Of a stretch of 12,783 nucleotides of DNA, positions 1 to 12,565 are shown in pieces. The DNA is from Candidatus Sigynarchaeum calidifontis (GTDB lineage Archaea; Asgardarchaeota; Lokiarchaeia; Sigyniarchaeales; Sigyniarchaeaceae): the NCBI GenBank assembly GCA_030587475.2, contig JAUQYZ020000188.1:1-12783 (forward strand), in the 5' to 3' direction. Each line of letters starts with the position of its first letter. The stretch's first letter is position 1. The notes beneath the pieces were generated by a model, which was not told the origin of the DNA, searched no databases, and was given only the letters and a program-made list of their open reading frames with translations. Both the position numbers and the translations under genes were made by a program.

Positions 1-1337
1 ACGTCGCCGGCACTGTCGAAGTTACAATCGACAAGCGTGACAGCTCGGGACGCGGTTGATCCACTGTATTCCATAAAAGAACTTCCTTGGCTACCATATT
101 GGAACGAAAACTGGCTGTCGAACCAACAATTTGCGAATGTAGTTGGTGGTAAACCATCGTACCGAAACCCTATCATCTTACAAAAACCAAAACCTTGTGC
201 GATGATATTCTTGTTGAAACTCGCCCAACTGTACGGACTTGCTTTGATTGTGTCGAGAAGGAATTCACACGACGTGAATTCACAGTTGACGACATCGGTT
301 TTACCGGCAGAGAGGTCGTACAAAAGATACGACATTTCCGAATCGATGATCTGTAAACTATTCATGTCATCGGATGGGCTGATATTGAAGAGGCTCCAAT
401 CGTCCTTGCATGACTCGATGACCATTTCGTTCGCATTGCGGAAGAAGATCATAGATTGCCTTTTTATAACGTTTGCACTGCTCCCAGCTGGGAGATCGAT
501 AACCAGACAGTCCCCCGAATCTAACGGGAATGTGGTATCTTCCTGTGTCGGTTGACCGTTAACGGTTATATCATATTTCTTTCCATTTTTATTGGGGTCA
601 ATTTGAGTCCCAGGTTTTATTGCAAAGCTCTTCGTCTTTTCCGAGTCACCTTTAACGTATATAACTGGTACGAGCAAGCCTATCGTCGAGGCGCTGTCAA
701 TCGATTTAACTATGCCCATGCCGGAAAAAAGCACCATGATCTTGCTCCCGATAATGGTTAATTCGGAGAACTCGTCGACCATGAGCAAGGCATTAATCTC
801 CGAATCCTCGATAATCGGCTCCGCAACCAACCGAATTGAATTCGAAGGGGGGGGAGTGTAGGGTTCACGGTCAGGATCGTTGGGTTTTGACATCCCACCC
901 GTGTCGAGAAAGCCCGCGTTCACGATGGATTTTTTCGCTCGGAACACATGGCCATGACTAGGTGCGCAAAAAATGCTGTATTTTACGTTCACCTCCGAGT
1001 TTTGAATTTCAAAATTCTGGTCGTCTTCAGGATTACCAGCATTACAGAAGTAAATCTGATCAGCATCTAGCCGCGTTTTGTTCGCTTGGTCGGGACCATC
1101 AGTCTGTATCGAGGAACAAAAACTCGCAATCCCATCGCAGAATAATTTCGGCACCCCATTTTCATTACCGATAAGTCGAAGATGCCCCATATGAGTTGAA
1201 GTTACCCCGGTAGTATCTGGATTAATGATATATACATCCGTGTCAAGATTGTCTGAAATCCCAAACCCCGAGTCATAATAGCAAAGTCCGTCCTTCGCAT
1301 TCACCGTAGCCCCCCCGTCGATGACAAGCTCCCCACC
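1..1337 (-). CDS. In-frame continuation of the surface protein beyond TAG 1338-1340 (beta-helix-like repeats); runs off the window edge
   Basis: Manual translation of 1337 down to 3 gives 445 codons with no stop: GGELVIDGGATVNAKDG ... KPNDPDREPYTPPPS ... VVNCEFTSCEF ... FANCWFDS ... VTLVDCNFDSAGD. It is missing from the ORF track, probably because its stop lies outside the window. Confidence 0.85.
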
Positions 1338-2300
1338 CTAGATGTGGATGTACCCGTCCACGTACAAGGTTGATCCGTTAGTCACTGTTAATTTGCCATC
1401 AGCATCCACGTCATCCCCGTTGATGATGATATCGTGGACAACCTCACCTTCATAGAAATTAACACCTTTCCAAGAGAAAGGATATCCACCTATCACCATG
1501 ACATCCGTTGGATCGACTACTATGTTTTTATGGCCAGAATTCCACGAGTAATCCACCGCGTCGACGTACATGTCCCCTGCTGCAACAAATTCGAGTCGCT
1601 TGAGATTGTTCGTGGATAGCAGCGTCAAGCCCTTGAATTGTAATACTGTATTCAGCCAGACGTTATAGGTGTATTGGTCAAGGCGGCTGGAACCCATAAC
1701 GGGATCATCAATCCCTCCAGATGCCAGGGTGAACTCGATTAGCACGTGATACCATGAAGAGCCCCCTGAATAATGACACTCGCCGAATTGCCCCATCTCG
1801 TATGTATCTGGGGATCGAGAGATCAAGGCTTGAACGTTCCCATCACTCCCGAACTTGATGTCAATTGCAAGGTTGGCCGTGGGCGTTGAACCATCATATA
1901 TCTTCACGTGATGATCTGCCGTGTTGCTGCTGAACGCCACGTAGAATTCGATGACTCCGCTCTCTTGTGCTGAAGCGAACTCGTTGGATACCGTGATCTC
2001 CGTGTCTGAGAAATCGAGCAGCATCACCGTCTTGTGATGATTTTCGACGTTTTTGAGCGTTCCTCCAGGCCATGCACCACTTTTGAATGAATCGTTCGCC
2101 GGATACTCCAGGTCAAAAGAGAATCCCGATTCTTCGATTTGCGGGATAGTGTCGATCTTCTTCTCAAATGCTGATTGTGCCGGTGTTCTCGTGGAGGAAG
2201 GGCTTTCAATCAGCGGAACAGAAATCGCCATGACCACCACGAGCACGAGCAATGATCTCGCCAGTCGTTTGCTTGTTAATATCTTTTGGTCGTGTTCCAT
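1338..2300 (-). CDS. Large secreted/cell-surface protein, N-terminal part (signal/TM helix, ConA/LamG-like beta-sandwich, start of beta-helix); ends at an in-frame TAG that is probably not the ancestral terminus
   Basis: 320-aa ORF. Basic N-terminus then a hydrophobic helix (KRLARSLLVLVVVMAISVPLI). Motifs YPANDSF, HHKTVMLLD, QESGVIEFYV, WYHVLIEF and YVDAVDYSW resemble, from memory, the ConA/LamG-like module of Lokiarchaeia extracellular proteins. GKLTVTNGSTLYVDG has a beta-solenoid pattern. Confidence 0.8.
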   Translation of the reverse strand: MEHDQKILTSKRLARSLLVLVVVMAISVPLIESPSSTRTPAQSAFEKKIDTIPQIEESGFSFDLEYPANDSFKSGAWPGGTLKNVENHHKTVMLLDFSDTEITVSNEFASAQESGVIEFYVAFSSNTADHHVKIYDGSTPTANLAIDIKFGSDGNVQALISRSPDTYEMGQFGECHYSGGSSWYHVLIEFTLASGGIDDPVMGSSRLDQYTYNVWLNTVLQFKGLTLLSTNNLKRLEFVAAGDMYVDAVDYSWNSGHKNIVVDPTDVMVIGGYPFSWKGVNFYEGEVVHDIIINGDDVDADGKLTVTNGSTLYVDGYIHI

Positions 2301-2702: not shown

Positions 2703-3734
2703 TTATTTAGAATCCCGTTCACCTAATGTATCGTTCAACCATCGCAGCATCTGGCCGATGAGCACGTGCTCTTGTCGGATGAACCAGTGATTGCCGTGTT
2801 TCAAGGCGAGATAGTGATCGGGGGACAAGCCGAATGCCTTTATGTTCTCCTCGAAGTTGAAATAAGGAACCGTGCAATCGTCCTCGCAATGGATGAGAAA
2901 CACCTTTTCGGCTATCCGGGCATCGCTCCAGACGGGATGGTCGAAGAACCCGAATTGCTTGTCCGCGTAGAACGCGGGACTGACAAGGAAATCTTGCAAC
3001 TTGCTCGGGTCCATCTCCAGGCCGCTCCATTCAAACGATTTCTTCATCCACCAGTCGCTCGTGAGCGGCATGATGCGCCGCGTCGACGTTTTCCTGAAAT
3101 CGTGCACGCCGGCGAGGGCGATGACGCATTTTATGTCGGGATCGCACGCGCCATGCGTTAAACCGACGATGGCACCGAGAGAGATCCCGACGAAGCCGAT
3201 ACGATTTCCATCGAGATCGGGACGCCCCTTCACGAACTCGACTATTCGCCTGAGTGCCCGCATGATCTCCATTATCTCCGTCTTGTCGCCGGGGCTCCGC
3301 TCGTCGATAACCTCGCTGCCGCGCCGCTTCATGACCTTGCCATGTCCCAGCGCGTTGTAGAGCAGCACCGCGTATCCGTTCAAGGCGACGGGATACGCGT
3401 AAACGAGCATGCGGCGGTACGTGGAACCATAGCCGTGGTGCATGATCACGACGGGCGCGCCTGTCGCGGGCGTGTGGTGGGACTTGATCAACGTGGCGTG
3501 CATGTTGCGGATCGACAAGGTCTCGATGGAGAATTTATTGGACGAGAGCACCGCTGTGCCGGGTTCGTCGTCGAACCGGAAGAATGACTGCTTGACGCTC
3601 GATACAACGATTTCCAGGATTAGCAATGCAAAGATGATGCCGAGCAGCGTGGCGAGCAAGGGATTCACTTGGTTCAAGAAGGTCAAGAGCATGATCGAGG
3701 CGGCGATGTACGCGGCGAGTCTCGGGACTTGCAT
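2703..3734 (-). CDS. Membrane-anchored alpha/beta-fold serine hydrolase (lipase/esterase/S9-like), about 343 aa
   Basis: Oxyanion motif HHGYGS, nucleophile GISLG preceded by RPDLDGNRIGFVG, acid in HCEDD-TVP, His in HGNH, and two N-terminal hydrophobic helices. Start moved from 4118 to ATG 3734 (MQVPRL) to remove the overlap with the divergent gene. Confidence 0.85.
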   Translation of the reverse strand: MQVPRLAAYIAASIMLLTFLNQVNPLLATLLGIIFALLILEIVVSSVKQSFFRFDDEPGTAVLSSNKFSIETLSIRNMHATLIKSHHTPATGAPVVIMHHGYGSTYRRMLVYAYPVALNGYAVLLYNALGHGKVMKRRGSEVIDERSPGDKTEIMEIMRALRRIVEFVKGRPDLDGNRIGFVGISLGAIVGLTHGACDPDIKCVIALAGVHDFRKTSTRRIMPLTSDWWMKKSFEWSGLEMDPSKLQDFLVSPAFYADKQFGFFDHPVWSDARIAEKVFLIHCEDDCTVPYFNFEENIKAFGLSPDHYLALKHGNHWFIRQEHVLIGQMLRWLNDTLGERDSK

Positions 3735-3761
3735 GGCTATCGAGGCATCATTGGACGCCCC

Positions 3762-3774
3762 TATACTTATTAAT
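3762..3774. promoter_or_regulatory. AT-rich putative bidirectional TATA element between the hydrolase and Fe-S genes
   Basis: tatacttattaat is the main AT patch in the 64-bp gap, about 30 nt from each proposed start (3734 and 3799). Confidence 0.45.
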
Positions 3775-3798
3775 GCCTTCGATGCTCGTGTTAACATC

Positions 3799-4620
3799 GT
3801 GACAACCCGCCCGACCTTGACATTGAAAGCTCGCATCAAGGGCGCCGCCGCGGAGCTACTCAAGCGGCAGCCGGCGATCGGCAAGGTCCTCGCCACGGCC
3901 ATGGGCGCGGTCGAGGTCTCGATGTTGAAAGTACTGCGCTTTTTAGGCAAGCACGTGTCGAAAGACTTCAAGATCCGCTTCATGCGAACCATTTTCAAGA
4001 ACAGATGGGGAGGCCGCATCGTCCCGCTGGGCGTGAACATTTCCGCAGGGACGAAATTCTTGCCGACGCAGGAGATCCTCGAGATCATAGGCCGGTCGCA
4101 CGCGTTCGGAATAGGCAAGTGTTATTGCCGCTCAACGCACAAGCTATGCGATAACCCGACCGACACGTGCATCTTGCTCGGCCCGAGAGCGGGCCGCGCG
4201 ATGGCCGATATCCCGTACCGAACATCGACGTTCACGAGCGTCTCCAAGGAGCGCGTCATGCAAGTGCTCGATGATGCCGACAAGCGCGGGCTCGTGCATC
4301 AAACTATCTTTTTCCCCTCACCAGATTATTTCTACGTCATATGCAATTGCTGCACTTGCTGCTGCGAGGTCTTGCACGATTTCAAGCGGTTCGGGACGCC
4401 GGCCATCATCAAATCAGATTTTATCGAAAAAACGAGTCTGGAGCGTTGCGAAGGTTGCGGATCATGCGTTCCAGCTTGTCCATTCGAGGCCAGGCACGTG
4501 ATCGATGGTGTCAAGGTTCTAGTTGAACCTGAGAAATGTTTTGGCTGCGGGGTGTGCGTTCGACGCTGTCCCCGGGGCGCCATTAGCCTCGTCAAGCGCA
4601 CGCTGCGACGCGAGGCGTGA
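3799..4620 (+). CDS. 4Fe-4S dicluster ferredoxin-domain protein with an extra Cys-rich N-terminal metal-binding region, about 273 aa
   Basis: CEGCGSCVPACP and CFGCGVCVRRCP (2x CxxCxxCxxxCP), plus CYCR, CDNPTDTC and GLVH...ICNCCTCCC. Start proposed at GTG 3799 (uncertain). The 3442-3798 extension is antisense to the hydrolase. Confidence 0.85.
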   Translation: MTTRPTLTLKARIKGAAAELLKRQPAIGKVLATAMGAVEVSMLKVLRFLGKHVSKDFKIRFMRTIFKNRWGGRIVPLGVNISAGTKFLPTQEILEIIGRSHAFGIGKCYCRSTHKLCDNPTDTCILLGPRAGRAMADIPYRTSTFTSVSKERVMQVLDDADKRGLVHQTIFFPSPDYFYVICNCCTCCCEVLHDFKRFGTPAIIKSDFIEKTSLERCEGCGSCVPACPFEARHVIDGVKVLVEPEKCFGCGVCVRRCPRGAISLVKRTLRREA

Positions 4621-4744: not shown

Positions 4745-6544
4745 TCAGCTATGTTGAGCGTCGACCTTCGCCTTCATGGCCATGAGCTCCTCGATTTCCT
4801 CGCCGACGTGGTCATAATACATAGGAAACTTGTCGTGGAGGGGGCTGATACGAGCAGCAAGCGACGCGCACTTGTACCACGGCACCACGACGATCTTCGA
4901 TGGCCCGGCGAGCGCGACCGCGTTCTTGAAGTCCTCGAGCGTGTGCTTGTCGTAGCCGCCGAGGAGGGCGAGCGGAAAAAAATAACCGATGCCAGGTAGC
5001 ACGTAGATGCCAAGCACGACGCAAGCGATCGCCGCGTATATCACGGGAACGACGAGCCCCAGGAGCGTGAAAACCCCGGAGACGACCCAGTAATAGACGA
5101 ACCCGGCCATGGCCGTCGAGATCCAGTTTTGCCACGCTGCCTTGCGGAAGTGCAAGGGGATGATGCGCCTCGTGATGTAGACCCAGCCCGCGCCTTGCTT
5201 GGCGGCGGTCGACAAGTAACCGGGGATGATGAGAATGTAGATGCCAAGCTGGAGATAAATACAAGTGATGATCGCCGTCATGCCCACGATTTGTTCGACG
5301 ATCGTGATGATCACGTTGAATTTATGATGGCCAGTGCCGATCAAGACCTCGTTCATCAAGTGCGAATGTTGAAATATGGTCCGATGAACGAGAACGACGA
5401 TGAAAATGCGGTTAAAAGTGCTGATGTAATCGTGGAAGAATTCATCGACGATCGCAGGGCCAAGGACGAGCACGAGCGGGATGATCATGAACGACACCTG
5501 GCCGATCGTCCGGAACCCGTTGCTCAGGATGTACTCGGCGTAATTCTGCTTCTTGTTGAAATACGCCTCGCACGTCGTGGCCTGGTGGTTGCCGATGTGC
5601 ATAGTGTTCACGGTCTCGGCGAGGCCCATGACCGGGCCGAGCGTCGACATGATGCCGACGAGCGTGCTGTAGTTGGGCAGCATGCGCGTGTAGAGCAAGG
5701 CAGTGAGCGTGCCGGGGATTTGATAGCTCAGCACGAATGCCATGACCCCGATGCCAAACTTGATGGAATCGCGGGCGATTTCCATGCGGATATGCGGGAT
5801 GAAAGCGTCGCGCAGCTTGAAGCCCCATGGCTTGATCATTTTCGAGAACATCCAGCCTGAGATCATGACGGTGGAGAAATCATCGACATAGTAACCGATG
5901 GTCATGCCGATAGCTGCTCCCATGACGCCGCCGATCTGGGGGCTCGCGTTGCCGAGGTACGCGCCGAGCTGCGCGCCCAAAGCGAGCGTGATCGACTGGA
6001 ACAGGACTGTGTTGATCAAGCTCACGATGCTCGTCTTGGCATATTGCTGGAATCCCTTCATTGCCTCCATGAACGTCCCCAGCATCCCTGGAAATTGAAT
6101 TATGCTGAGCCAGACGAAGAGCCATGGCATGTAGGAAATGTTCGTCGCGCCGAGGGCAAACAAGCCAAGAAATGAAACGACCGTCGTTTGCGCGAGCCCG
6201 GTGAACATTTGAAACCAAATAAAGAACCGGATGTACTCGATCGTGCGCTGCGGGTCCTTCACGCGATATTCTGCGATGAACCGGGCCAGCGAGCTCGCGG
6301 TACCAAGGTCCGCGAGCGTGAAGAAAGAACTAAAAATGCCCGTGAGAATGTTGTAGAAGCCCATGCTTTCCGGATAAGGAATGAAGACGGGTAGCAGTAG
6401 AACGTAACCAATCGCCACGACAGCGAAGATTATATAAAAATAAAAACCGCCAATCACCCGGTGATAACCAATCTTTTCCCATCTGTCAATCGCGGGGCGT
6501 GATGCATTTTCCATCACGGCCGTGCTGCCATTCTCCATGATCAT
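4745..6544 (-). CDS. MOP-superfamily (oligosaccharide flippase/MATE-like) exporter, paralog 1, about 599 aa
   Basis: About 12-14 hydrophobic helices, LADLGTASSLARFIAEYR (Wzx/MOP-like) and VLIGTGHHKFN. Start placed at ATG 6544 (or 6538), 7 nt after GGAGGT at 6552-6557. Confidence 0.8.
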   Translation of the reverse strand: MIMENGSTAVMENASRPAIDRWEKIGYHRVIGGFYFYIIFAVVAIGYVLLLPVFIPYPESMGFYNILTGIFSSFFTLADLGTASSLARFIAEYRVKDPQRTIEYIRFFIWFQMFTGLAQTTVVSFLGLFALGATNISYMPWLFVWLSIIQFPGMLGTFMEAMKGFQQYAKTSIVSLINTVLFQSITLALGAQLGAYLGNASPQIGGVMGAAIGMTIGYYVDDFSTVMISGWMFSKMIKPWGFKLRDAFIPHIRMEIARDSIKFGIGVMAFVLSYQIPGTLTALLYTRMLPNYSTLVGIMSTLGPVMGLAETVNTMHIGNHQATTCEAYFNKKQNYAEYILSNGFRTIGQVSFMIIPLVLVLGPAIVDEFFHDYISTFNRIFIVVLVHRTIFQHSHLMNEVLIGTGHHKFNVIITIVEQIVGMTAIITCIYLQLGIYILIIPGYLSTAAKQGAGWVYITRRIIPLHFRKAAWQNWISTAMAGFVYYWVVSGVFTLLGLVVPVIYAAIACVVLGIYVLPGIGYFFPLALLGGYDKHTLEDFKNAVALAGPSKIVVVPWYKCASLAARISPLHDKFPMYYDHVGEEIEELMAMKAKVDAQHS

Positions 6545-6557
6545 GCATTCGACCTCC

Positions 6558-6616
6558 GTGTATAAAATCGTCCTCGACGCCGGGTCGCGCAAACCCTCGG
6601 AGTTACTATAAAATAG
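6558..6616. promoter_or_regulatory. Divergent promoter region with two TATAAAAT boxes
   Basis: tataaaat occurs at 6561-6568 and 6607-6614, between the flippase (minus) and coiled-coil (plus) genes. Confidence 0.4.
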
Positions 6617-6665
6617 CCGGAAGCGATGTTTCTCCACGGCAAGGATACGAAAATGGTGATTCACC

Positions 6666-7688
6666 ATGTCCGAGGACATCGACTGGAACGACCTCAATCA
6701 AAAAGCCGCAGCGGGCAAGGAAGCGAAGGTGCTAGCGCAGCACGTCGTCGATTTGTTGCAGGAGCTTCGAACCGCAGAAAAAGATCGTGACCTGGCGAGG
6801 AATGAAATCAACAAGATGAAGGAGGACTTCAACCTCCAGAGCGTCCAGCTCGAAAAACTGGCCGAGGAATTGAGAAAAGCCCAGAAAACCCCCCCGCCCT
6901 CGGCGGAACTCGCCGAGTTAAAAAACAAGGTTGCCACGCTCGAGGCCGACAACAAGGGGAAAGCCCAGTTCATCGCCCAGCTCGAAAAGGAGGCCATGGA
7001 AGCCAAGAACAAGCTCGCCGAGCTGCAAAAGACGGCTGGTCCCGCGGGTGCAGAGGCCCGGATCAAGGAGCTCGAGGCGAAGCTCGAAGCCAAGGAGAAG
7101 GAATTGCAGGAAATGGCGGCCAAGGTCGAAGCGGTCGATTCTATCAAGGCAGATTTCGAGAAAATAAAAGCATCGAGCGGTGTAATACCCGGCAAGGAGG
7201 AATTCGAGAGGGAGAAGGCTGAATTCGAGGAGGAGAAAAAGAAGCTCTTCGCCGAGATGGAATCGTTCGAGGTCGGCTTGCGCATGGAGATGGAGCAGAA
7301 AGACGCGAGGATCAAGGAACTGGAAGCCCAGATCGCCGAGTTGAAGGAGCACCCGGCCGTCGCGCCGTCTGCGGTCATGGCCGCGACCACATCGGCAAGC
7401 CCGCGCACGAAGGAGAGCCTGATCGCCAAGCTCGGCCTGGAGGGCGTGACCGTGTCCAAGACCCCCGTGCCCGCGGCCAAGGACTTCGCCTACCCCGGCG
7501 TCGGCGCGAAGGCCGACGTCGTCATCCAGGCACCGACAGAGACTCGCATCGTTTGCCCGAAATGTGGAAACACCAACGTGCGCCCAGAAAACGACCGCAG
7601 TCGCGTTTTATCTTATATGGGGGGCGTTCCTCTCTATGCAAAGAAATACGTCTGTAAAAAATGCATGTTTGAATTCCGGGTTGATTAG
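6666..7688 (+). CDS. Coiled-coil protein with C-terminal zinc ribbon (hypothetical, Lokiarchaeia-type)
   Basis: GGTGA RBS at 6655-6659. E/K/A-rich heptads over roughly aa 20-228, an Ala/Pro linker, then CPKCG...YAKKYVCKKC. Ends with TAG followed by a T-rich tract. Confidence 0.85.
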   Translation: MSEDIDWNDLNQKAAAGKEAKVLAQHVVDLLQELRTAEKDRDLARNEINKMKEDFNLQSVQLEKLAEELRKAQKTPPPSAELAELKNKVATLEADNKGKAQFIAQLEKEAMEAKNKLAELQKTAGPAGAEARIKELEAKLEAKEKELQEMAAKVEAVDSIKADFEKIKASSGVIPGKEEFEREKAEFEEEKKKLFAEMESFEVGLRMEMEQKDARIKELEAQIAELKEHPAVAPSAVMAATTSASPRTKESLIAKLGLEGVTVSKTPVPAAKDFAYPGVGAKADVVIQAPTETRIVCPKCGNTNVRPENDRSRVLSYMGGVPLYAKKYVCKKCMFEFRVD

Positions 7689-7890: not shown

Positions 7891-8940
7891 GTGGAACTAA
7901 TGCTCGTGCCGATCATCACGCTCTCGCTCGTGTTCGTGGCCATTCAAGCGTTCGTCGTCGTGTTCCTTGCCAAGCGAGCGATCCAGCTCAAGCTGCGCAA
8001 TCTCTGGTTCCTGGTGGCTTCATTCATCGCCTACATCGTGACCGCGCTGTTCGGCGCGATGAACGCGCAATTCCAAATCCTTCTCCAGCCTTTCGGCCCG
8101 TTGCTCGGGATCGGGTTCACGAAAAGCACCTTCTACGACAAGGCGCGCTCCAATTACATGCTCGTCGTGCTAACCGCGACGTTTTTCACGGGCATGACCT
8201 TTTTCGTGAAATTGTTGCGATTGATCGCCGGCGACTCGGAGGTCTTGTACTTGATCAACGAGGTCGTGCTCTTTGGAGTTTTTTTGCCAGCATATGCGTG
8301 GCTCGCCAAGGCTTGTTTCGATGCAAGCCGTCGCATCTCCAAGGATGTTGGCATCGAACCTTGGATCAGGAAACGTTACTTGTTATTGGGAATATCTGCC
8401 GCGTTCATATCGCTCTTGATCACGCCCTCGCTTTTCATGGGGTCCATGGCCACCTTCTACACGTTGCAAGGATTCTTCTGCTTGCTATCGATCGTGGTAC
8501 AATTGCTCGTCTTCTCCATCTTGAATTATCTCTGCTGGGTCATGCCCCCGTGGTTCAAGAGGTGGCTGGGCACGAGGGTTGTCGAGCCGGGTGTGAGCTT
8601 GGCCAGAGCGGGTGAGCAGCGCGAAGCCCCGGCGATAGGAGACAGGGTGTTCACCACGCGCGAGACGATCACCATCGCCGACTACCTTGGCAACATGCTC
8701 GCGCCGATGATCAACAAGAGTCCCGCTGCCATCAAGGGTCTCTTGCTCGTCACGTTCCAGGACGAGCAGGAGGAGATGGGGCTCCAGCCGCTGAGCTTCG
8801 CCGACGTGATACATGCCATTAACCATCGATTGACGCAGCGCTTGGAACAGCTGGGCATCAGGGATGCCGATACGGTTGTAAAGGGATTCATCGAGAACGT
8901 GACGCGGAACCAGTCGATGCTGCTCATGATGCTGGTGTAG
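7891..8940 (+). CDS. Seven-transmembrane protein with C-terminal ~95-aa cytoplasmic helical domain (hypothetical)
   Basis: Seven hydrophobic segments by eye within aa 1-220, with IEPWIRKRY before TM6 and WVMPPWFKRWL after TM7. Soluble tail DYLGNMLAPMINKSPAAIKGLL...NQSMLLMMLV. GAGGT at 7876-7880 precedes the GTG start. Confidence 0.8.
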   Translation: MELMLVPIITLSLVFVAIQAFVVVFLAKRAIQLKLRNLWFLVASFIAYIVTALFGAMNAQFQILLQPFGPLLGIGFTKSTFYDKARSNYMLVVLTATFFTGMTFFVKLLRLIAGDSEVLYLINEVVLFGVFLPAYAWLAKACFDASRRISKDVGIEPWIRKRYLLLGISAAFISLLITPSLFMGSMATFYTLQGFFCLLSIVVQLLVFSILNYLCWVMPPWFKRWLGTRVVEPGVSLARAGEQREAPAIGDRVFTTRETITIADYLGNMLAPMINKSPAAIKGLLLVTFQDEQEEMGLQPLSFADVIHAINHRLTQRLEQLGIRDADTVVKGFIENVTRNQSMLLMMLV

Positions 8941-9989: not shown

Positions 9990-10283
9990 TTATTTCCTAT
10001 CCTTCCAATAATTTGGTTTCCGGCGCAGATGTGCAACAGCGACGATGATGATCTTCGTCGTCTCCTCTCGGTAAAGGATCGCAAATGGAAACCGCTTCAA
10101 CAAACATCTTCTAGTGATTCCTTTGAAGAAAGGCCAGAGTGCTGGATCATTCTCGATGTTTTTCACCGCGCTTTCGATTTCCTCCTCGAATTGCTTCCCT
10201 AGACCGCCAGACCGTTGCTCGTAAAAAAGGATTGCCTCCTCTAGTTCTCTCGAAGCATCGGGAAGGAAAATGGCGCTCTTCAT
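9990..10283 (-). CDS. Type II toxin, RelE/ParE family
   Basis: 97 aa: FLPDASRELEEAILFYE...GLGKQF...RRCLLKRFPFAILY...IIIVAVAHLRRKPNYW. ATGA overlap with the upstream antitoxin. Confidence 0.92.
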   Translation of the reverse strand: MKSAIFLPDASRELEEAILFYEQRSGGLGKQFEEEIESAVKNIENDPALWPFFKGITRRCLLKRFPFAILYREETTKIIIVAVAHLRRKPNYWKDRK

Positions 10284-10519
10284 CCAAGCTTAGACCTAAT
10301 TCTTTTAAAAACCTCGTCAGCGGGGATACCTCGCACCTTACCTTCTTCGTATTCACGATTTCGGCGCTCTACCTCTTTCATCCACTTTGATTCTGCTTCG
10401 GGATCCTCCTCGTCATCCAGGCTGCGAATGAGGCTCACGACCAAGCTCGCTCTCTCCTGGACAGGAAGCTGCAATGCTTTTTTCTTGATTTCCTCGCTCT
10501 TGGATGCCAGATTCATCAC
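10280..10519 (-). CDS. Antitoxin, addiction-module component (TIGR02574/unstable-antitoxin type)
   Basis: 79 aa: ALQLPVQERASLVVSLIRSLD...W..EVERR..EYEEGKVRGIPADEVF, translationally coupled to the toxin. Confidence 0.92.
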   Translation of the reverse strand: MMNLASKSEEIKKKALQLPVQERASLVVSLIRSLDDEEDPEAESKWMKEVERRNREYEEGKVRGIPADEVFKRIRSKLG

Positions 10520-10603: not shown

Positions 10604-12565
10604 TCATTCAGCCAATGCAGGAACATGCTCTACCTTGTCCGGCGGCTGTTCCTCGTTTTTCTTGCGCTGGATCATGAGCTCGACCATCTCGCGCTCGGCA
10701 TCCTCGTGGTCCATGGGGAAGCGGTTGTGGAGCTTGGAGACCTTCGCGAGGGCGGCGGTCATCTTGTAGACGGGGATGAAGAAGATGCGGCTCGGGCCGG
10801 AAGCATACACGGCCTCCTTGAAGACCGCGAGCGTGTGGTCGTCCCAGCCACCGAAGGCACCGTAGAGGATGACGAAGTTGAAGATCAAGCCGACCACGAA
10901 GGCAAACGTGACCGACACGATGACCGTCGGGATGGGCCCGATGGTGCGGCTGAGCTCTGGGAACACGTAAGCAGCCCAGATCATGCCCTCGACGAGCGTG
11001 AGGGCACCGGGGATGAGCGGCGCGACGAACGACTGCCACCACGCGATCTTGATCTTGCAGATGTACTTGTTGATGTACCACCAGTCCGCGATGAACCGGA
11101 CGAGGTCGGCAGCGAGGTTTCCGCACGGGATGATCCAGATCATGGCGGCGAGACCGTAGGTTTGTGGGATCCGTGTAATGTAGAGCCAGAAGAATGTCAT
11201 GAAGTATGACAGCCCCATGTGCACGAAATTCATCATCGTCTTGAATACCGGCTTGTGCGCCATGATCAAGATCTTGTCACCTTCCCCTTCGGGCTGTTCG
11301 ATGAGCGTGCGCAAGAGATTGGGAAGAATGAACGGTATGGCAAGCAAGTAATTTTCCGCCCCGCCTACGTAAAGCATCACGGTGATCACGGTTGGCAAGT
11401 ACCCGATGACGAGGCATGCGATGCCGACCGTGAAAAACCCGTAATACTTGAACGTGTTCGCGATGTAATACTGGACGAGCTTGTGCTTCCCGTTGTTTAA
11501 AGCCTCGGCGAAAGCGCCTTTCGTGTTGATGCCCTCGGAGCGCTTGGATATATTGGCGATCTCGTCGGCGAGACCGTTGAGCGTGAGCATGGTCGCGTAC
11601 GCGGGGACGGCGTCGTACCACGAGAAGAAGACAAAGAACCCGATGACGGTCCCGACGAGGCCGGGGAGGGAAAGCTGGATCCCGAGGATCGTGCTGCGCT
11701 TGACCGTGTCCCACGTGAAGTTCGGCCGCACCGCGTCCCGTAGCCGCAATCCCATCGGCTTCAAGGCACGGCTCAAGTACCAGCCCGCGATGGCAGCCTC
11801 GCCGAACTGGTTCACGTAGGTGCCGATCACGAAACCGATAGCGGTGCCGAGCATGGCCCCGATGGCGGGATTACTGCCGATGTAGTACCGGCCGAACAGC
11901 ACGAGCCCGAACTCGCACAGCTTGTTGATGATCTCGTTTGCAAAGTTGCATTTCGACTCGTAATCGAACTTCTGGAGGCCCTTGATCGTCTGGAGGAACA
12001 CGTTGAGCATCGCCGGGTATTCGCGGGTCATGAGCAGCAATATTATCCACGATAGATGCGCCAGGCTGCCGGTCTTGACCACGAGTATCGTGTAAATGGA
12101 CGTGATCGTGATGATGCCAATGCCGGTGAGCATCTGATACCATATATAAAAAGACACGAACTGGAGCATCTTTCGAGGGTTCTTGATGCGATAATCGCCG
12201 ATCCATCGCTCGATCGCCCATGAGGTCGGCACGTTCATCGCCGTCTGGAAAATGGAGAACAGCACGCCCGCGACGGTCACGTAGGCCTTTGATTCCGGCT
12301 CCGGATAAAGCTGGCCGAGTAAGAACGGGATCACGACGGCCATGATGCCGGCGCCCAGGATCGCGTAGAAAAACTGGTACAGCCACCCGCCAAGTGGTCG
12401 CGAATACCCCACCCGGTCAAACGCGTTTAACTTGGTTCTATCAAACGCGGCGATTTCTTGCTCGGTCACGGGCGGCAATTCCTTCCACGTGACGCGGCGT
12501 GCCTCCGCGTGCAAGATTCGTGGCAACCAGGTGAGAACACCTTTAACCCGTTCCTTAAACGTCAT
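10604..12565 (-). CDS. MOP-superfamily (oligosaccharide flippase-like) exporter, paralog 2, 653 aa
   Basis: Polytopic membrane protein colinear with paralog 1: GYSRPLGG vs GYHRVIGG, PEPES vs PYPES, YRIKNP vs YRVKDP, IWYQMLTG vs IWFQMFTG, KGLQKF vs KGFQQY, GPSR...LHNRFPM vs GPSK...LHDKFPM. Confidence 0.82.
   Translation of the reverse strand: MTFKERVKGVLTWLPRILHAEARRVTWKELPPVTEQEIAAFDRTKLNAFDRVGYSRPLGGWLYQFFYAILGAGIMAVVIPFLLGQLYPEPESKAYVTVAGVLFSIFQTAMNVPTSWAIERWIGDYRIKNPRKMLQFVSFYIWYQMLTGIGIITITSIYTILVVKTGSLAHLSWIILLLMTREYPAMLNVFLQTIKGLQKFDYESKCNFANEIINKLCEFGLVLFGRYYIGSNPAIGAMLGTAIGFVIGTYVNQFGEAAIAGWYLSRALKPMGLRLRDAVRPNFTWDTVKRSTILGIQLSLPGLVGTVIGFFVFFSWYDAVPAYATMLTLNGLADEIANISKRSEGINTKGAFAEALNNGKHKLVQYYIANTFKYYGFFTVGIACLVIGYLPTVITVMLYVGGAENYLLAIPFILPNLLRTLIEQPEGEGDKILIMAHKPVFKTMMNFVHMGLSYFMTFFWLYITRIPQTYGLAAMIWIIPCGNLAADLVRFIADWWYINKYICKIKIAWWQSFVAPLIPGALTLVEGMIWAAYVFPELSRTIGPIPTVIVSVTFAFVVGLIFNFVILYGAFGGWDDHTLAVFKEAVYASGPSRIFFIPVYKMTAALAKVSKLHNRFPMDHEDAEREMVELMIQRKKNEEQPPDKVEHVPALAE

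Follow-up and report, generated by a model that had tools for sequence, protein, structure and literature searches.

A UAG codon inside an otherwise open archaeal gene can be read as pyrrolysine by the pylTSBCD system, which is known from methanogens and from some Asgard classes, e.g. Sifarchaeia (PMC9723677). Fewer than 6% TAG stops have been reported for Pyl users (PMC9723677). The gene described here shares with this system only an in-frame TAG in an otherwise open archaeal frame. It differs in that no pyl genes or tRNA-CUA were found, that TAG is used in the ordinary way, that the codon is not conserved, and that the protein has no relation to methylamine methyltransferases.

Strain-variable surface proteins, in which conserved flanks enclose a diverged middle, form a second class for comparison. 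They include many bacterial surface antigens and phage receptors, whose alleles are replaced by homologous recombination. Like these, the present gene exists in versions with identical N-terminal 320 residues, a shared C-terminus and a middle of ~450 residues that is ~50% identical, and the similarity climbs toward both edges of this middle. It departs from the class in its Asgard host, in the lack of a Pfam model and in the number of versions, which so far is two, one of them broken.

A third class comprises young nonsense alleles with a single lesion, as seen in prokaryotic populations and in MAGs. The gene resembles them in that a single stop differs by one base from the sense codon in intact conspecific copies, the frame is otherwise free of decay and the lesion is private to one assembly. 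However, the lesion here coincides with the border of a strongly diverged allelic segment, which makes an assembly or base-call artefact harder to exclude than usual. The original prediction for this locus had put forward pyrrolysine or programmed readthrough, with a single-base change or base-call error as an at least equally likely fallback; it is the fallback that the evidence favours, given that intact copies carry TAT (Tyr) at this position.

Results

An in-frame amber codon in a surface-protein gene

The window, i.e. the whole stretch of DNA that was analysed (12,783 nt), is the entire contig C201, and the gene is therefore cut by the contig end. The contig belongs to an Asgard MAG of 4.99 Mb in 269 contigs (89% complete, 5% contaminated). 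On the minus strand, an ORF of 320 codons runs from an ATG at 2300 to 1341 and is followed by TAG as codon 321 (1338–1340, minus strand). Past the TAG, a further 445 codons of this frame are open, up to window position 3. The junction translates as ...YVDGYIHI*GGELVIDGGATVNA, and the bases directly 3′ of the TAG are GGTGGGG.

The original prediction of an in-frame TAG within a frame of at least 766 codons was correct in both codon position and extent, the frame being open to the contig end. So was its remark on the lack of other decay: the TAG at codon 321 is the sole stop among the gene's 766 codons, and the downstream 445 codons carry no further lesion. Two other ORFs of the window, 6666–7688 and 7891–8940, likewise end in TAG, and these had been taken as apparent true stops; the next in-frame stops follow 27 and 17 codons on respectively. 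Reinitiation at the GTG at 1304 was considered as a route to the downstream part and rejected, since the product would be without a signal peptide and hence is unlikely to be functional.

Tyrosine at codon 321 of the intact copies

Searching the MAG with the read-through protein returned a second match, on contig C74. This contig opens at its second base with YIHI-Y-GGELAIEGG and runs for 764 codons, reading ...CATCTATGGTGGGG... at the site equivalent to the TAG; the DNA is CATC-TAT-GGTGGGG on C74 versus CATC-TAG-GGTGGGG in the window. C74 thus supplies a different form of the central segment, here called version B, followed by ~300 further C-terminal codons.

The protein database cluster holds five NCBI-derived sequences (P0003–P0007), of which P0004 is the window's own 320-residue fragment. 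P0005 is intact (1080 aa) and is encoded on two contigs of other NCBI assemblies; it is the same as the window protein at 320/320 N-terminal residues, has Tyr at 321 and continues with version B as on C74. Because P0005 is identical over 320 residues and then has Tyr, the TAG is one transversion from TAT. P0003, a partial protein of 445 residues, has the same construction (the window's N-terminal 320 residues, Y321, then version B), while P0006 and P0007 are C-terminal partials, the contig of P0007 being 39,851 nt long, as is C74. The C-terminal part of C74 differs from P0005 at a single residue, A versus S in ...FTVDGI-x-YTV.

The codon-321 column was also followed into five distant homologues (25–33% identity, 1241–2451 aa), which have V, Q, S, A or L there; the position is not conserved in this alignment. 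The ortholog comparison thus spoke against conservation of the TAG, with Tyr (TAT) in the intact allele and V/Q/S/A/L in the distant homologues, and the ancestral codon was TAT in the intact copies instead of the CAG that had been suggested. No relatives of P0005 were found in metagenome and genome contig collections, and no orthologue was present among 40 relative genomes, which gave two weak matches to the lectin domain only.

Predicted fold of the protein

The N-terminal 320 codons (1341–2300, minus strand), delimited by the ORF, by identity to P0005 and by fold matching, would encode a hydrophobic signal or anchor, a ConA-like lectin beta-sandwich and the first short beta rungs. On reading the translation, residues ~13–30 form a hydrophobic stretch in keeping with a signal peptide or membrane anchor. 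The product matched no Pfam family, Beta_helix included, at the cut-off. An AlphaFold model from a nine-sequence alignment, usable for residues ~80–335 only, folds residues ~80–255 into a beta-sandwich (pLDDT 60–87). By comparison, the single-sequence AlphaFold model of P0005 had a pLDDT of 32.

Foldseek returned 257 PDB matches to this beta-sandwich at E ≤ 0.001. The matches of residues ~80–255 included galectin-7 and -8, a sialidase CBM and the C-terminal domain of levanase, and superposition on galectin-7/-8 gave TM scores of 0.6–0.75, normalised to the target. The model therefore supports a concanavalin-A-like lectin domain at the level of fold, and the 'lectin-like' label of the original prediction is borne out at that level. 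In its likeness to the ConA-like lectin/glucanase fold the modelled domain superposes on the beta-sandwiches of galectin-7/-8, sialidase and levanase, but sequence identity is 10–16% and no Pfam family reaches threshold, and sugar binding is putative here.

A beta-solenoid running straight through the TAG had also been proposed. In its favour, the model has short, regular strands at residues 303–334 (pLDDT ∼70–76), i.e. across codon 321, before it becomes poor past residue 338. Against it, there was neither a Beta_helix Pfam hit in the protein nor a beta-helix fold match for the TAG region, and the Beta_helix domains of the distant homologues fall outside the part aligned with the window protein. 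On the strength of the model, a beta-solenoid across this region is plausible but unproven. Sequence searches of the PDB and of the ESM Atlas gave no reliable match (top score in the latter, 0.81).

Further along the intact protein, residues ~900–1080 of P0005 (C74:~1750–2296) form a beta-rich C-terminal domain ending in ...FYLDNIGIF. This recalls the ...MYVDAVDYSW of the N-terminal lectin domain, and local matches to that domain are very weak; the C-terminal domain may be a second ConA-like domain.

Two diverged versions of the central segment

Comparison with C74 and P0005 defines a version A of the central segment in the window (445 open codons, 3–1337, minus strand). Past codon 321, identity between versions A and B is 49% when all alignment columns are counted, with 53 gap positions, and 54% by BLAST; their DNA is about 68–84% identical in alignable blocks. 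The variable segment spans ∼1.3 kb and is flanked by sequences shared with C74. Its left boundary is a stretch of 69 nt (1285–1353, minus strand) that matches the opening 69 nt of C74 at 84% identity; at the left edge itself 29 nt match with one T/G mismatch, and at the right edge 66 nt match with one mismatch. The right boundary, the last 51 nt of C201 (window 1–51), is identical to C74:1354–1404.

Both the N-terminal and the C-terminal DNA occur once each in the MAG. Version A likewise occurs once, and its only database match is the window's own P0002. C201 continues without a break for 10 kb on the upstream side of the gene, and C74 extends 37 kb downstream. Since the two flanks are single-copy and 51 nt are identical to C74, the simplest reading of these sequences would be a single locus of which two alleles from the sampled population were assembled together, version A being joined to the upstream side and version B left with the downstream side. 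The 51-nt right boundary would then be the assembly-graph node at which version A rejoins the shared C-terminal part. A chimera of two different genes, fused at the TAG, was also considered and rejected: the exact match around the codon is only 15 nt, which is under the usual k-mer, and the N- and C-terminal parts are single-copy in the MAG.

P0003 and P0006, from another assembly of this species, stop at residue 445 and begin at residue 669 respectively (P0005 numbering). These ends lie inside the variable part and suggest that the polymorphism reaches beyond this sample and may occur in others. The same breaks, and the short, highly similar edges of the segment (29 nt on the left and 66 nt on the right, each with one mismatch), would also suit a scheme in which the two versions are exchangeable cassettes within a single genome, with gene conversion drawing on a silent copy, as for pilE/pilS or vlsE, and the TAG as a junction scar or as the 'off' state of programmed surface variation. 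We regard such programmed exchange as highly improbable, because version A is single in the MAG and joined directly to the N-terminus of the expression site, a separate silent copy was not found in the MAG, and no recombinase lies beside the gene; a two-strain bubble suffices for the contig structure.

The first base that separates versions A and B is the G of the TAG, a placement that raises the suspicion of an artefact. A base-call, consensus or assembly error, with the real version A having TAT or TAC (Tyr) and an intact gene, would be of the kind that arises where co-assembled strain variants diverge, beside a G-rich run. The G lies at a branch of the assembly graph and just ahead of GGTGGGG, and a typical Illumina phasing error near runs of G is to call a base as the one next to it. 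The 445 downstream codons show no other defect, and version A is without an independent copy in the databases searched. Assemblers, however, normally keep the majority k-mer, so that an error here needs either low coverage or a systematic miscall. Moreover, k-mers of 16 nt or longer tie the G to a version-A-specific base 14 nt downstream, and the G therefore belongs to the version-A read set. Taken together, these points leave an error as a tentative alternative, serious but rather unlikely.

Search for UAG recoding

The leading proposal of the original prediction was that UAG might be decoded as pyrrolysine, or read through in a programmed manner, to give a short and a long isoform. Pyl machinery does occur in some Asgard classes such as Sifarchaeia (PMC9723677). 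In a search of the MAG with the corresponding profiles, the top scores were 32.4 bits for pylS (TIGR02367; cut-off 178), 30.4 for pylB (cut-off 348), 20 for pylC (cut-off 248) and 20.5 for pylD (cut-off 150), all of them sub-threshold hits to unrelated paralogous families. As the MAG is just 89% complete, missing pyl genes or a missing tRNA are no proof of absence. Across the order, none of 41 genomes (23 of high quality) had a pylS match at E ≤ 1e-20; Methanosarcina acetivorans served as control and was positive above the cut-off.

Nor was a tRNA with a CUA anticodon found, either among 54 tRNAs predicted by aragorn with and without introns or among 49 Infernal hits to RF00005; the tRNA set being incomplete, such a tRNA is 'not found' rather than 'absent'. 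Lowering the aragorn threshold produced three 'cta' candidates, which had no Rfam tRNA match and were discarded as noise among > 1000 false tRNAs.

The tRNA survey brought up further features of the MAG. A tRNA-Sec (anticodon tca) was predicted by aragorn at C88:23669–23761 and also matched the Infernal tRNA family. Contigs C212 (11601–17719) and C82 (46–1816) carry dense arrays of about 20 and 11 tRNAs respectively, with short spacers and no introns. Such arrays are unusual for an archaeal chromosome, and the other tRNAs of the MAG are scattered and often intron-bearing; the arrays could stem from a virus or mobile element, or from bacterial contamination of the bin.

TAG terminates 729 of 3914 ORFs of at least 250 codons (18.6%) and 500 of 2858 ORFs of at least 300 codons (17.5%), i.e. 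17–19% compared with the < 6% of Pyl users (PMC9723677). Genome-wide, in-frame continuation after TAG proved no commoner than after TAA or TGA. At least 200 open in-frame codons follow 6.2% of TAG, 6.9% of TAA and 7.7% of TGA stops (ORFs of at least 250 codons), and 40 open, coding-like codons follow 10.4%, 11.9% and 8.2% respectively (ORFs of at least 300 codons). There is no TAG-specific continuation signal in this genome, in which TAG behaves like TAA and TGA.

To these results are added the Tyr at codon 321 of the intact allele, the variability of this position in homologues and the fact that the protein is not a methylamine methyltransferase. The reading of UAG as pyrrolysine by PylRS and tRNA-Pyl is thereby effectively refuted, and the two-isoform proposal is not supported, given the lack of detectable pyl genes and CUA tRNA, the ordinary TAG usage and the Tyr in the intact copies. 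As far as sequence allows, recoding is excluded.

Readthrough need not involve pyl genes. A real TAG could be decoded leakily by a near-cognate tRNA, e.g. tRNA-Tyr, so that a minority of full-length version A accompanies the 320-residue fragment. This would agree with the wholly open frame past the TAG, with Tyr at codon 321 of the intact allele and with yeast, where UAG readthrough inserts Tyr, Gln or Lys (PMC4150775). An open frame, however, is as much expected of a fresh lesion. The stop is conserved in no relative, coding sequence is not over-represented after TAG in the genome as a whole, and the RNA that follows shows no structure: the 116 nt beginning with the TAG have a folding energy of −24.9 kcal/mol, compared with a shuffle mean of −25.4 (z 0.17). 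Apart from Sec and Pyl, we know of no case in which programmed readthrough has been demonstrated in archaea. Leaky decoding of this sort is highly improbable. Its most specific form, in which the cell's own tRNA-Tyr partly reads the TAG as Tyr (near-cognate, G-psi-A type) and the cell would secrete a 320-residue lectin fragment plus little full-length protein, is more doubtful still; if true, it would be a first example of UAG leak-through with a function in an Asgard archaeon that lacks pyl machinery.

Neighbouring genes

Elsewhere in the window, a ParE-family toxin is encoded on the minus strand at 9990–10283 (Pfam PF05016, E 1e-7). A 79-codon ORF (10280–10519, minus strand) lies just upstream with a 4-nt overlap, and the two are probably a type II toxin–antitoxin pair. 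Two ORFs of ∼650 codons (4745–6697 and 10604–12565, both minus strand) match no Pfam family, one of them having a weak glycine-zipper hint. Closer to the surface-protein gene, a 471-codon alpha/beta-hydrolase ORF (2703–4118, minus strand) overlaps the ORF of a 4Fe-4S protein (3442–4620, plus strand) by ∼680 nt (3442–4118). The listed start of the hydrolase ORF is TTG; its domain occupies residues 219–466, so that the true start probably lies far downstream.

Discussion

We favour the view that the TAG is a fresh Tyr-to-amber nonsense allele of version A; this is the likelier account of the locus, held with some reserve. The gene would encode a secreted or anchored surface protein of ∼1080 residues, built of a signal or anchor, a ConA-like lectin domain, a long middle rich in beta structure and a C-terminal domain. 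Its middle 1.3 kb exists in two strongly diverged versions between common flanks, with one version per contig. Version B, present on C74 and in other assemblies, is the intact form with TAT (Tyr) at codon 321, and version A, that of the window, carries TAG through a one-base T-to-G difference. TAG would act as a stop in this organism and, being read as such, would leave version A with only the 320-residue lectin-domain fragment as product; the allele would be young and otherwise undecayed.

Two elements of this scheme go beyond the sequences themselves. We infer that real cells carry the G in their DNA and that it is not confined to the assembly, and the truncated product would have no programmed role. 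The undecayed 445 codons fit a very recent mutation and a sequence error equally well. An ordinary nonsense allele, or an artefact, in a strain-variable surface-protein gene is already known biology.

For work on these archaea, the analysis disposes of a misleading hint at an expanded genetic code in this Asgard lineage. By the genome-wide counts TAG behaves like TAA and TGA, and a lone TAG within a reading frame of this MAG should not be taken as a pyrrolysine site. What the locus does offer is a clear case of a strain-dimorphic Asgard surface protein, with identical flanks, a middle that is ∼50% identical and a ConA-like lectin head as modelled. The dimorphic middle segment is the reason why contigs of several assemblies break inside the gene, and a dimorphic surface protein of this kind is relevant to the cell-surface diversity of these archaea and to their interactions with viruses and partners.
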